A DNA stretch of 64,000 bases from Escherichia coli (GTDB lineage Bacteria; Pseudomonadota; Gammaproteobacteria; Enterobacterales; Enterobacteriaceae): assembly GCF_041248615.1 (NCBI RefSeq), contig NZ_CP158427.1; one strand, written 5' to 3'. Below are positions 1 to 5,475 of this stretch, piece by piece (within the stretch, counting starts at the first letter, position 1; each line of letters begins with the position of its first letter). The position numbers are program-made.

Positions 1-3000
1 GTGGATAAGTCGTCCGGTGAACTGGTGACACTGACACCAAACAATAACAACACCGTACAACCTGTGGCGCTGATGCGTCTGGGCGTTTTTGTACCGACCC
101 TTAAATCACTGAAGAACAGTAAAAAAAATACACTGTCACGTACTGATGCCACGGAAGAGCTGACACGTCTTTCCCTGGCCCGTGCTGAGGGATTCGATAA
201 GGTTGAGATCACCGGCCCCCGCCTGGATATGGATAACGATTTCAAGACCTGGGTGGGGATCATTCATTCCTTTGCCCGCCACAACGTGATTGGTGACAAA
301 GTTGAACTGCCTTTTGTTGAGTTTGCAAAACTGTGTGGTATACCTTCAAGCCAGTCATCCCGCAGGCTGCGTGAGCGCATCAGCCCTTCCCTGAAGCGCA
401 TTGCCGGTACCGTGATCTCGTTTTCCCGTACCGATGAGAAGCACACCCGGGAATACATCACCCATCTGGTACAGTCAGCCTACTACGATACTGAGCGGGA
501 TATTGTTCAGTTACAGGCCGATCCCCGCCTGTTTGAACTGTACCAGTTTGACAGAAAAGTCCTTCTCCAGCTTAAGGCGATTAATGCCCTGAAGCGACGG
601 GAGTCCGCCCAGGCACTCTACACCTTTATAGAGAGCCTGCCCCGGGATCCGGCACCGATATCGCTGGCGCGGCTGCGTGCACGCCTCAATCTGAAGTCTC
701 CTGTATTTTCCCAGAACCAGACGGTCAGACGGGCAATGGAGCAGTTGCGCGAGATTGGATATCTTGATTACACGGAGATCCAGCGGGGGCGGACAAAATT
801 CTTCTGTATTCACTACCGGCGTCCCCGGTTAAAAGCGCCGAATGATGAGAGTAAGGAAAATCCGTTGCAACCTTCACCTGCGGAAAAAGTCAGTCCGGAG
901 ATGGCGGAGAAGCTTGCCCTGCTTGAGAAACTGGGCATCACGCTGGATGACCTGGAAAAACTCTTCAAATCCCGCTGAACATAAACTGTAGTCAGTGAAG
1001 AGCGCTCCTTTACTGACTACAGCTTATATTAACCGGTGCAGTGAGTGGTCTGCTCACTGCAGTTTATATTCTGTTTCCTGCAGTGCTGTCTGTAGCTGAG
1101 CTGCCATCTGCCTGTCCCTTACGTAAGTGATCCCGTAACCTGATGCTGAGGCATTGCTCCCTTCATAAAACATGACTTACTCACTACAGCTTATATACAT
1201 GCTCCAGCTTATGTTATGTCTGTTCTGCTGACCACAGCTTATATAAGGAAGCGCGTATGCCGTCACCTCAGGGGAGGCAGTGTACGCAGGATCTCCGCAG
1301 CATCCCGCCCGTCACCGGTGAAAGGCACTGCCAGCGTGGCAGCCATATCCAGTGCAAACACTCTGGTATAAACCTCCATCGAACGTGGATCCCTGTGACC
1401 AGCCAGTGCCTGGATGACTTTCCGGGGCTGGCGGTGATAGAGCATGTGCATGATATAGCTGTGCCGGAAGGTGTGTGGTGTGACCGGAATCGAAAAGTGT
1501 ACTCCGTCAGCTTCGGCCCGTCTGACAGCCTGCTTCAGCCAGTTGCGCATGGTTTCGTCGGTCACGGCCCATAATGGTTCACGACGACGGGGCCGGGTGG
1601 TGATCATCCAGCTTTCCATCTGCCTGACATAGCTTATATCTGTCAGCGGAACCAGGCGCACTTCATCTTTTGGCGGGCGTCCGCGTCGCGCACGCACTTT
1701 TTCGGACAGGATCCGCACAAACGGTCTTACTCCATTCAGGTCAAATGATTCCGGCGTCAGCATCCGGGCTTCGCCAATACGCATTCCGGTATTCCAGAGG
1801 GTGGCGAACAGCATATGGTGACGCTGATCCGGCATATAGAAAAGAAGGGCACTCACTTCCGGGGCCAGCAGGTAGGCCGGTGTGGCCCCCGTGGAAGTGG
1901 CCATTCTTCTCAGGGAGAGCGCTGTTGCAAAATCCACCCCCGGCGCAATGGGTAACAGGGAGACGCGTTCTGGTGAATTCTGCAGGGGAATGACATTGTT
2001 CATGAGTTATTTTTCACGTAGCACACGCACTGTTTATGGATACAGGTATTCTGACCTGAACGCCCGGATCCTTCCACGACAATAAATCGCAGCGCGCGGA
2101 TCCTTTTGTTTGATTATCACGCATTATTGCGGGTAAAACCAAATACGTAAAGGCGCATTTTGCCGCTGGGATCCCGTCTTAAGCCAGTCATGGTGCGGGC
2201 TGAGGGCTGGTTTACCGTTTTTGGGAGAATTGGGGTAATGCCAGGAACAGGCAGATACGGAGAAAAATCCTGCAGATAACCTTCTACGACAACTGAAGGT
2301 GTCTGACGCCATATCCTTAGCTACTTCTCAGTTTTAAGGCGGCTTAGTCACAACATAAGGTTATGCATAATAAGCATATTTTATTATGTTATGGTCTTGT
2401 TCATGCATGAACTGTTATCTATTCAGTCACTTTTAACGTTTTTATCATACTGCATATGACACAATCATCTTCTATATTCAGATTAAAGATATTATGACGA
2501 CGATCAAATAAATTTAGTGAAATTGTTACTTACAATAATATGTTTATGACATAATTTATCAAAAATATCCGACAACCTTCCTGAAAGGTTACTGCGAGGA
2601 GTCAAACAATGAAGTGTAATAACTTATTCAGTCTTTTTTATGCTCTCTTTATAGCAAAATCAGGAAGTTAAAATGAATCAGAAGTGGAAGACGCTAATAG
2701 TTTCAGTATTAACACCATCAAGTATTATATCAGGAATTGCGTTGATAGTTCTCTGGGGATATTTCAATCGTCTGGACCGACTGGATATTTTCTTTGATGT
2801 GATGAATATTAAAAGCATCTTGGTATTGGTTTGTTGTGCAACTATTCTATCATTGATTATAATTATGATTATTTTTTTTATAACATCTTTTTTTATACCA
2901 ATAGTTATTCCTTATGATATAAATAACCTTCCTGCTTACAATAAGATTCAGGGTAATTTTTTATCTGTAATGATGTTATCTGGCCTCTTCCCCATGGCCT

Positions 3001-5475
3001 TTATATACGTGTTATACTGTGCATTTGATTTTGACCAGAGTGTTAAAGACAACTCTGGCTGGTTATCTATTTTAAGTATAGGAGCACTAATAGTTGTTAT
3101 TTCAGCCATAATAAACAAGAGGTATCTTGAATATGACTTATCGTTTAAAAATAATAGAATGAAATTGTTGAGACGTGTTCAGATCTATCTTGTCATTCCG
3201 TTGTCTATTGCTTTACTGGTGCATCTTCAGGTAATTCCACTGGAGATTGTTTTTAGGAATATTGCAACTTCAGATAAGAATGTTAATTTCAAAGTGATAG
3301 CTGAACTGGCTTTCATGTCATATTTTATTTTTATTTTGACAATACTTCCCGGCCTCATTTATCTAAAAATGAATCCACAGCATAAACTTTCTAAAAGAAT
3401 TAGCTCTTCATTTGTCGCATCCTTGATGATATTATTAGTTATATCGACTCAAATAACCGTATTACCAGTAATTTTTACCCATTCAGTTATTAAGCTCTCA
3501 GGTATAAGTGACTTCAAAATACATAGCTACATTATTAAAACAAGTGAATATCCGGAGGAGTTTTTTTCCAATGCAGTATGGGGCAAAAAAAATATAAAAG
3601 CGGGGGAATATTACTCTGTGCAGGCTGTTTCTATGTTTACGACAAACCAGTTTATTTTCCTTTGTCCTAAGGATATTATAAAGTTTTATCGGGAAAGCTG
3701 GAAGTTCGAACTGCTTAATGTAGACTTCGATACAAATACTAGGAAGAAACTCCAGGAAGAAGCAGCATATTGCGTACCAGTTTCTGCAATATCTGTAAAA
3801 CGATGGGATATGCCTCTTCAGGGCTCGAAACCCTCAAGTTAGAAGGCCGCTCGGGCGGAAAACAACGACTGTATTCTGTGACGAAAATGACAATTAAAGT
3901 CTGAGAAGATACGGGAACCAGGTTGACACCACACAGCGCGGCAAAACCTTATTCGGTTTTTAACCGTTGGGGATTGTCTCAGGCAGTGAGCAGCAACTGC
4001 GAAGCGCTTTTGTATGTACGCCGTGACTGGCGCTGTTCTTCAACTGTTGTGGCTGAAGAACGACTAAGAGGTGAAAGTCCTCCACACACCCGGTGAGGGG
4101 AAATGTTAGCGGAAGGCAAGGGTGTTCATCGCGAGGTGAAATCTGAAGGAAGCCGGATGCAAAATGCTGGCCTGACGAACAGGAAGCGGTTAAGGCGGCG
4201 CAGCGGGGTAAGGTGGCATACATCACCAAAGCCCGATACTCACACGGAACGCTGTGACGTAGAGCCGACAGGCATAAGCAGGAAAGTCGCGCGAATTACC
4301 CCGGGAGATCTGCCGTCCTGCCAGTGTGCTACCGGCGTCGTAAGGTGCCAGGGTGGGGCGGCAGAAGTCAGCCGACGCCGTAGTAGTGCTGCAAAACCGG
4401 CAGCATGAAGGGTCGAACATGATTAACCGTGATTAGGACATCCGAACCCGATGATGATTAATGAAGCACAAGCGCAGGCAACTGCGGCCAGCGGCAGAGG
4501 AGACGGACGGTATCCGTCAGGGCTGCATGATGGCGCTGAAATCAGCACGGCGGCGGGTGGATAACCTCAGCGTGGCGGAGTTGAAACCGTGGCTGAAGAA
4601 GAACTGGCGCAGTGTCAGGCAGGCACTGATTGACGGAAACTACCAGCCGCGGGCAATACGCCGGATGGCGGCGTGAGAACCTCAGGCATCCCGACGGTTG
4701 TGGACAGGCTTATCCAGCAGGCGATAGCGCAGCAGTTAAGCGCCATCGTGGACAAAAGCTTCTCAGACTCCAGCTACGGCTTCCGGCCGGGGCACAACGC
4801 ATGGCAGGCGGTGCAACAGGCACAGCGTTACATACGGGGCGGCAAACGGTGGGTGGTGGGTATGGATCTGGAGAAGTTCTTTTGACCGGGTGGATCACAG
4901 ACTCCTGATGACGCGTCTGGCCAGAACGATAAAGGACAGGCGGGTGCTGAGACTGATACGCCGCTACCTTAAAGCGGAAATAGTCCGGGACGGGCAAAGG
5001 GAAAAACGGCAGGAGGGCATGCCGCAGGGCGGCCCGCTGTCGCCGTTACTGTCGAACATCCTGCTGGATGAACTGGATAAAGAACTGGAGCGTCGTGGAC
5101 ACAGCTTCTGCCGCTACGCAGACGACTGCAACATCTACGTAAGCAGCCGGAAAGCGGGCGACCATCTGCTGAAGAACATCAGGGCGTTCGTGGAGAACAA
5201 ACTGAAGGTGAATGAGAAAAAGAGCGCGGTGGCGCGCCCGTGGGAGCGGAAGTTCCTCGGGTACAGTGTGACATGGCACAAACAGGCGAAGCTGAAAATA
5301 GCCCTGACGAGCGTGGAGAGGCTGAAGGAGAAAGTCCGCAGTTTGACCACGGGAAACCGGAGCAAATCAGTGAAAGCGACAATCAATGCCCTGACGCCAG
5401 TGCTGCGTGGATGGATAAGCTACTTCAGGCTGACGGAAGTCAGAGGAGTGCTGGAAGAGCTGGACGGCTGGATCA

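Follow-up and report, generated by a model that had tools for sequence, protein, structure and literature searches.

A lone AT-rich gene beside the IncFIB replicon of Escherichia coli F plasmids encodes a predicted seven-helix membrane protein with a possible protective role

What does a single AT-rich gene do for the F plasmids that carry it? The question is raised by a 64,000-nucleotide stretch of Escherichia coli DNA (contig NZ_CP158427.1 of RefSeq assembly GCF_041248615.1; the whole stretch is called the window here), in which an islet at positions 2318-3857 holds one gene for a 389-residue membrane protein. The gene appears in the literature as the 'hypothetical protein' pRS218_060 of a PCR prevalence table (PMC4155114), and our literature search returned no mention of its WP accessions and no functional study or phenotype. 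We find that the islet is a self-contained cargo module and that its product is predicted to sit in the inner membrane with a conserved periplasmic face, and we tentatively favour a stand-alone protective role for it.

A single-gene cargo islet

The islet is the stretch of the window with the lowest content of guanine and cytosine (GC), at 33% versus 50%. GC falls from about 0.48 to about 0.30 near position 2318, lies at 0.29-0.34 across roughly 2300-3750 and stays low until just beyond the stop codon at 3842, after which it exceeds 0.52; directly to the left it is 0.47-0.49, in the neighbouring recombinase gene (int) 0.55-0.59 and to the right 0.52-0.61. The minimum-GC window of 1.5 kb in all 64 kb starts at 2311 (GC 0.32), and windows of this size with GC of at most 0.34 make up 0.7% of the total. 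The gene itself has a GC content of 33.3%, and of 32.8% at third codon positions (GC3), compared with a GC3 of 59-62% in int and in the replication gene repB. A preliminary description made from the sequence alone had proposed an AT-rich island sharply unlike its flanks and holding a single 389-residue gene; the composition, the homology breakpoints given below and the presence of only one long open reading frame (ORF), at 2673-3842, bear this out. The following features define the gene and its upstream region.

2673..3842, + strand: coding sequence of the 389-residue membrane protein (ATG start, 1170 bp)
2662-2667, + strand: ribosome-binding site AGGAAG, five bases before the ATG
2318..2672, no strand assigned: AT-rich non-coding 5′ part of the islet (29.7% GC), presumed promoter region

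Homology to other IncFIB plasmids breaks at 2246 or 2317 on the left and at 3857 or 3907 on the right. Megablast with positions 2200-3950 matched 3,020 plasmids, 1,143 of which covered the gene, and the others matched only 2200-2246 or 2200-2317 before diverging. Because the step in composition coincides with these breakpoints and with the presence/absence polymorphism, we regard the stretch as a horizontally acquired genomic islet. In other IncFIB plasmids the same slot holds Mig-14/SDR/OmpT genes (ColV-type; locus L004 of our set) or a pap-like fimbrial operon (L005). These alternatives to the right of RepFIB-int mark the slot as a cargo hotspot and the AT-rich gene as one of several cargoes. 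In IncFIB-type F plasmids the islet makes up a self-contained module: a single gene, acquired horizontally and carried as cargo.

In the 5′ part of the islet a consensus scan found no strong promoter on the + strand, and a promoter-like site on the - strand (2562->2535) is directed at a 62-residue ORF and int. We found no upstream sequence common to the E. coli gene and its Enterobacter-type orthologues, and a shared regulatory region was rejected, the upstream regions being unrelated. Since homology between the two begins only at the ribosome-binding site or ATG, the ORF alone appears to be the mobile unit. We also considered an invertible promoter worked by the adjacent recombinase, as with FimB/FimE. 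All inverted repeats in the region are AT-rich and weak (10-16 nt, 75-92% complementary), no inverted promoter orientation was seen and seven of seven aligned alleles were colinear, so a recombinase-driven phase switch was rejected.

Separately, the window has further low-GC stretches (<0.38 over 1.5 kb) at 11.6-14.4, 16.0-17.6, 27.9-31.2 and 46.9-49.4 kb, all with GC above that of the islet.

A widespread and mostly intact gene

Of 5426 complete E. coli genomes, 1250 (23%) have the gene, at 1258 places on plasmids versus 7 on chromosomes; it also occurs in 1299 of the 72,556 plasmids of PLSDB, mostly conjugative IncF. The protein of the window is an allele (~95% amino-acid identity) of WP_001072358 (UTI89_RS25405 / pRS218_060). 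pUTI89 carries the intact gene as UTI89_RS25405, and that exact 389-residue protein occurs in 32,872 assembly blocks. The window allele is rare: three records are at least 99% identical, and that of p14408_1 (protein WP_113411063) is 100% identical. In a spread sample of complete genomes, the gene has its full length of 1170 bp in about 90%. The ratio of nonsynonymous to synonymous substitution rates (dN/dS) is 0.07-0.10 against orthologues of 62-71% identity, a distance at which dS is saturated, and 0.24-0.45 among close alleles. These comparisons point to a real, intact gene under purifying selection.

Recurrent frameshifts arise in two places within the coding sequence.

2872..2879, + strand: T8 homopolymer, codons 67-69; T8->T7 gives a frequent, N-terminally truncated 282-residue allele
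3561..3592, + strand: T7 (3561-3567) and A8 (3585-3592), codons 297-307; sites of the C-terminally truncated 304- and 307-residue alleles

The 282-residue form was counted in 1,128 collection blocks, compared with 32,872 for the otherwise identical intact allele, and a T7->T8 slip at 3560 yields the 304-residue form, found in 307 collection blocks. Each of these two forms differs from an intact allele by one base only, giving ON/OFF pairs in two lineages. Homopolymer phase variation was nevertheless rejected: the OFF form amounts to ~3% of the matched allele (roughly 8% in the sample of complete genomes), which reads as sporadic loss rather than a switch. The same counts bear on whether the gene is a decaying or neutral hitch-hiker with no current function. 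Frameshift alleles are numerous in absolute terms and many IncFIB plasmids lack the gene, as such a passenger would predict; set against this are the low dN/dS over long distances, the ~30 to 1 excess of intact alleles over the matched frameshift allele, the share of full-length genes among sampled complete genomes, and the highly confident structural model and four invariant positions in 52 divergent sequences described below. We therefore give the hitch-hiker explanation a very small probability.

A conserved periplasmic face

Hydropathy and the helices of an AlphaFold2 model agree on seven transmembrane (TM) segments, so the polytopic membrane protein of the preliminary description was recovered. 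The model, built with 52 diverse homologues as input, has a mean predicted local distance difference test score (pLDDT) of 92.5 and a predicted TM-score (pTM) of 0.88, and shows, besides the seven helices, two short ones in the periplasm and a C-terminal α/β domain, which when modelled on its own still reached a pLDDT of 86. The lysine- and arginine-rich loops at residues 148-167 and 229-244 are assigned to the cytoplasm by the positive-inside rule, a placement that gives an N-in, C-out topology and puts residues ~270-389 in the periplasm. We thus divide the protein as follows.

2673..3482, + strand: seven-helix transmembrane domain, codons 1-270, N-terminus predicted cytoplasmic (hydropathy, positive-inside rule, AlphaFold2)
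3483..3839, + strand: predicted periplasmic α/β C-terminal domain, codons 271-389 (topology rules, AlphaFold2)

The product is accordingly predicted to be an inner-membrane protein with seven TM helices whose C-terminal domain, by topology rules, faces the periplasm. A soluble C-terminal domain of ~110 residues had been proposed earlier; the domain is there, slightly larger than thought, at ~115-120 residues. It opens with the motif SGISDF, in which G277 is invariant, and contains two further invariant residues, C331 (3663-3665) and C367 (3771-3773). Because two invariant cysteines fall in a domain predicted to be periplasmic, a structural disulfide is suggested, and a C331-C367 bond probably locks the domain. 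On the same side of the membrane, the first periplasmic loop (residues 31-47) bears the motif W..Y(F/L)..(L/I)(D/G)RLD.F.

Conservation across the 52 sequences, which extend to ~15% identity, is sparse: only P226, G277, C331 and C367 are invariant, with W28, S72, W303 and P332 nearly so. Scored by region, periplasmic loop 1 comes first (0.52); the C-terminal domain scores 0.42, the same level as TM1 and TM2, and the lowest values (0.22-0.30) belong to the internal cytoplasmic loops. Across the family there is neither a conserved polar or charged TM residue nor a conserved residue of catalytic type. By this measure the periplasmic face, comprising loop 31-47 and the C-terminal domain, is the conserved and hence the presumptive functional side. 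We read the protein as a membrane-anchored binding or blocking module on the periplasmic side of the membrane, and not as an enzyme or an ion-coupled transporter. Alternatively, a seven-helix bundle could carry an ion or solute across the membrane while its periplasmic domain served as gate or as substrate-binding lid. A search for a membrane transporter (ABC-2 permease, major facilitator superfamily (MFS) and others) gave no family-level sequence or fold match and no expected partner genes, and we hold a transporter or channel to be improbable.

A family of uncharacterized proteins

Profile searches returned no annotated relative. The best Pfam match was DUF6338 (E 2.7) and none of the 52 family members had a match at E <= 0.001; no NCBIfam family reached E <= 1 for the query, and PDB sequence profiles gave nothing significant. 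Together with null results from PADLOC and PHROGs, set out below, these agree with the earlier statement that the function is unknown. A DUF5671 label on a few members in UniRef was unconfirmed by Pfam scans. With Foldseek against AFDB50, the matches were 'Uncharacterized protein' entries only, first from Enterobacterales and then from Pseudomonas, the latter at 14-16% identity with TM-scores of 0.65-0.75. Homology to a transporter or housekeeping membrane protein, which would have counted against the abortive-infection or exclusion role proposed in the preliminary description, was thus not found in Pfam, NCBIfam or Foldseek.

Exhaustive phmmer over 1.84 billion representatives found 110 proteins, nearly all of 370-425 residues and of the same architecture, with no domain fusions. 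Their named hosts are Cronobacter, Erwinia, Pantoea, Kosakonia, Brenneria, Xenorhabdus, Lelliottia, Morganella and E. coli, with single Vibrio records besides. Homologues such as UTI89_RS25405 / pRS218_060, Lelliottia A0AAP4FTC5 and an E. coli O145 chromosomal paralogue are true family members, with identities of 25-95% over the full length and TM-scores of 0.8-0.94 between models; every record seen labels them 'hypothetical' or 'Uncharacterized protein', and none has been given a function. Scanning genome contigs with a family profile from a shallower alignment gave 8 loci only. One 485-residue ENA protein (P0075), in which 52% of the query (94% identity) is joined to tRNA-synthetase domains, is probably a chimeric metagenome contig or a gene-call artefact.

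A lone insert among variable cargo

At 11 of 11 loci examined, the gene falls short of the GC mean of its flanks by 4-25 points, and in nine by at least 11. It is a lone AT-rich insert, often beside a tyrosine recombinase, and no partner gene recurs. A possible operon partner was seen once, in Erwinia persicina (L009/L010, 4527-7245), where the family member follows a LemA-TPM pair and its long form overlaps that pair. As this neighbourhood occurs in Erwinia persicina only, a conserved operon partner was rejected.

F-like plasmids of Enterobacter, Citrobacter and Lelliottia carry an orthologue of 60-71% identity as a divergent pair with a XerC/D-like recombinase of ~330 residues, located after traI-DsbA. 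The two genes are ~240 bp apart, and variable cargo starts directly behind the pair:

type II CBASS (cyclic-oligonucleotide-based anti-phage signalling system) operon
WYL regulator and E1-E2/JAB protein
DUF4411/XRE and GNAT/DUF1778 pairs
PD-Lambda-2_B-like and RmrA-like genes
YafO toxins and ter cluster

This conserved pairing, together with the different tyrosine recombinase that adjoins the gene in E. coli IncFIB plasmids, would fit an accessory of plasmid maintenance tied to the recombinase, such as one that anchors multimer resolution or segregation to the membrane. However, the two recombinases belong to different families and the upstream regions are unrelated, ~1,900 IncFIB plasmids keep int without the gene, and many relatives have no recombinase nearby; moreover, the conserved face is predicted to be periplasmic, the internal cytoplasmic loops being the least conserved. 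A role in plasmid maintenance is the least credible of the explanations we set out.

Defence genes recur elsewhere around the family. On a Pantoea plasmid, a relative of 22% identity is flanked by a PDC-S20/KAP NTPase on one side and an anti-phage dCTP deaminase on the other; on pEC656_1 (L011, 1-2416), Gabija lies 1.7-4 kb upstream (GajA E 5e-85, GajB E 2e-47) with IS1 in between; and toxin-antitoxin neighbours across the loci include PemK, YafO, RelE and GNAT pairs. Known defence or toxin-antitoxin genes were found within ~8 kb in roughly 8-9 of ~16 independent contexts, a count made with no background model on plasmids that are rich in such genes.

An integrative and conjugative element (ICE) of Xenorhabdus hominickii raises the question of conjugative entry exclusion. 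Here a homologue of 34% identity (29% GC) lies 216 bp downstream of a TraG_N gene (56% GC; Pfam E 2e-84), at the end of the ICE conjugation module, and is followed by a split recombinase and a type I restriction-modification (R-M) system. As an analogue of TraS or Eex, the protein would lie in the recipient's inner membrane, recognise a donor TraG-type protein, possibly of a conjugation system other than that of the F plasmid itself, such as ICEs with mating-pair formation of type G (MPF_G), and block DNA entry. The Xenorhabdus arrangement mirrors the AT-rich traS downstream of F traG, and an inner-membrane protein with a conserved periplasmic face carried by conjugative elements would suit the task. 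In four other MPF_G elements (L047-L050), however, TraG_N is followed by a small convergent gene of ~120-130 residues (DUF3742 in L050) and no homologue, after which the cargo differs (ParDE, AbiEi/AbiEii, a recombinase, insertion sequence (IS) elements). The slot after TraG_N in MPF_G elements looks like a cargo hotspot, and with four elements showing variable cargo there, the Xenorhabdus case is better read as a cargo slot than as an exclusion gene. Aligning the family profile with F-type TraS of pUTI89 in hhalign gave a probability of 0.4% (E 0.16). The protein is also 2-3 times larger than known Eex proteins; in F plasmids its gene is near RepFIB, far from a tra operon that already holds traS and traT; and many relatives occupy non-conjugative chromosomal sites. 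On the null hhalign result and the variable slot, identity with TraS or Eex was rejected, and we consider an entry-exclusion role for the protein very unlikely.

As a separate observation, the homologue loci L028 and L029, on two contigs of Xenorhabdus hominickii, look identical in match identity, E-value and GC of gene and flank, which suggests a duplicated ICE segment with TIGR03755-57 conjugation genes, TraG_N, the homologue, a split XerC-like recombinase and the type I R-M system.

A candidate protective determinant

The mobile-element lifestyle of the gene and its neighbours make a protective role the most plausible one. In this model the protein would work without a partner. Stationed at the periplasmic side of the inner membrane, it would bind or block, and would protect the plasmid-bearing cell from something that arrives via the envelope. 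The likeliest target would be phage genome entry or replication, in a manner like superinfection exclusion or abortive infection; a competing conjugative element or a membrane-targeting bacteriocin would be less likely targets. We favour such a stand-alone determinant of anti-phage defence, exclusion or immunity, but only tentatively. A bolder form, a new class of single-gene envelope-level protection in which a 7-TM anchor with a disulfide-locked, SH3-like periplasmic domain blocks or senses the incoming DNA-delivery machinery of phages or foreign conjugative elements, is possible though more doubtful. Its carriers would be the F plasmids found in roughly one in four sequenced E. coli, among them pandemic pUTI89-like plasmids from extraintestinal pathogenic E. 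coli (ExPEC), as well as plasmids, ICEs and islands across Enterobacterales, and proteins of similar structure occur in Pseudomonas.

Several observations weigh against protection. PADLOC-DB v2.0.0 contained no family at E <= 1 for the query or at E <= 0.1 for ten diverse relatives, and membership of a known defence family was rejected on these grounds; PHROGs gave no match. By tblastn, 50,697 phage genomes held no relative, and 2.9 million contigs of IMG/VR held one only, at the edge of a Siccibacter provirus. An origin as a prophage moron or phage superinfection-exclusion gene was accordingly rejected as unlikely. Instead of being the protein's most variable part, as would be usual for an arms-race interface, the periplasmic domain ranks with the more conserved ones. 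Frameshifted alleles in ~3-10% of carriers indicate that loss is tolerated. Defence and toxin-antitoxin genes are common on plasmids anyway, which makes the neighbourhood evidence weak, and about half of the distant chromosomal relatives lie between ordinary metabolic genes. Finally, the alternative cargo at the E. coli IncFIB slot (Mig-14/SDR/OmpT, pap-like fimbriae) is of a virulence or adaptation type and not defence. The earlier guess of abortive infection or exclusion thus gains circumstantial support from cargo hotspots beside CBASS, E1-E2/JAB with WYL, Gabija, dCTP deaminase, type I R-M and toxin-antitoxin genes, and loses some from the lack of a PADLOC match or TraS similarity, the absence from phages and the virulence cargo at the same slot.

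That virulence cargo leads to another explanation, in which the protein is a host-adaptation or envelope fitness factor, conferring tolerance of bile, antimicrobial peptides, serum or envelope stress in ExPEC-type hosts and having no anti-phage or anti-plasmid role. Besides the Mig-14/SDR/OmpT genes and fimbrial operons that replace it in the RepFIB-int slot, the gene travels with virulence plasmids of the cjr/senB type (pUTI89, pRS218), several relatives lie among housekeeping genes, and pRS218_060 was found in 96% of neonatal meningitis E. coli (NMEC) isolates versus 10% of faecal commensals (PMC4155114). The NMEC association, however, tracks the whole plasmid and not this gene specifically. 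There is, moreover, no similarity to known envelope-modifying enzymes and no conserved catalytic residue, and even within species the family has a patchy, island-like distribution: 91 of 5426 E. coli genomes have the chromosomal paralogue, which lies in an AlpA/YfjJ-type island. We regard an envelope factor as unlikely, if less so than transport, entry exclusion, neutral carriage or plasmid maintenance; the probability left after all these readings goes to something else.

Flanking genes and the rest of the window

The islet had been placed between a recombinase and a group II intron remnant, and both neighbours were confirmed.

1-978: IncFIB replication gene (repB), which opens the window
1263..2003, - strand: IncFIB-associated tyrosine recombinase 'int', 246 residues, divergent from the islet gene
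2124..2312, - strand: 62-residue ORF of doubtful reality, 'serine/threonine protein kinase' in some RefSeq records
3908..5570, + strand: degraded group II intron, with the 5′ end near 3908 placed only by the homology breakpoint
5577-6790: IS3-family element truncating the group II intron

The int product is 44% identical to the recombinase near the Lelliottia orthologue. NCBIfam gave no match for the 62-residue ORF, other IncFIB plasmids break it off at 2246, and its kinase name looks like an annotation artefact. In a study by differential fluorescence induction with sequencing (DFI-seq), the promoter of the neighbouring UTI89_P046/P047 (this ORF and the next gene) was active, and the islet gene was not the hit (PMC5404293). 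The intron remnant shows Rfam D1-D4 matches at 4125-4294 and 4329-4413 and frameshifted ORFs for a reverse transcriptase/maturase at 4461-5570. Within orfA of the IS3-family element lies a full-length Rfam match to isrC, an Hfq-binding small RNA (145 bits, 5609-5731, + strand).

Farther along, a second small tyrosine recombinase (11025-11813, - strand) precedes the AT-rich genes of a Saf-like fimbrial chaperone and usher (13002-16476, + strand), so that the layout at 11-16 kb, a recombinase and then AT-rich cargo, resembles that of the islet. A gene for the macrolide phosphotransferase Mph(A) and then an MFS efflux gene (20045-22185, + strand) indicate that the plasmid bears a resistance region.

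Implications

This gene, found in 23% of the complete E. coli genomes and, as the exact protein, in >30,000 assembly blocks (the ExPEC and NMEC plasmids pUTI89 and pRS218 are included), ranks among the most widespread F-plasmid genes without an assigned function, and its product has a confidently predicted fold without a solved or annotated relative. If the protein protects against phages, competing plasmids or bacteriocins, it would bear on the host range of phage therapy against ExPEC, on plasmid competition and on the catalogue of defence systems. A role as an envelope fitness factor would instead make it a new candidate behind the unexplained contribution of pUTI89/pRS218-type plasmids to virulence.

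Comparison with known systems

The transmembrane bundle resembles ABC-2-type permeases and RnfA/MtrD-like bundles with scores no better than those of designed helical bundles, and with no family-level sequence match. Unlike those proteins, the islet protein lacks ATPase or complex partners and has an extra periplasmic domain.

The entry-exclusion proteins TraS of F and Eex of SXT/R391 share with it a single AT-rich gene on a conjugative element (traS has a GC content of 37%, compared with 51% for traG) and an inner-membrane product, and for TraS the Xenorhabdus ICE adds a homologue of the islet protein directly after a TraG_N gene. The islet protein differs from TraS, having 389 residues and 7 TM segments against 161 residues for TraS of pUTI89, and the two have no profile similarity. 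Its gene also lies next to RepFIB-int, whereas traG-traS-traT lies elsewhere in both the window and pUTI89.

Membrane-bound phage exclusion and abortive-infection proteins include RexB of lambda, SieA of P22, Imm of T4 and gp15 of HK97, and a plasmid example is PifA of F. Unlike these, the family has no PADLOC or PHROG match and is practically absent from phage genomes, and to our knowledge an architecture of 7 TM segments with a periplasmic disulfide domain has not been described for RexB, SieA, Imm, gp15 or PifA. The PifA-like KAP NTPase beside the Pantoea homologue is a different protein from the family. The likeness is one of genetic setting: as with these proteins, the islet gene would be a lone membrane-associated determinant on a mobile element, with no conserved partner and among defence genes.

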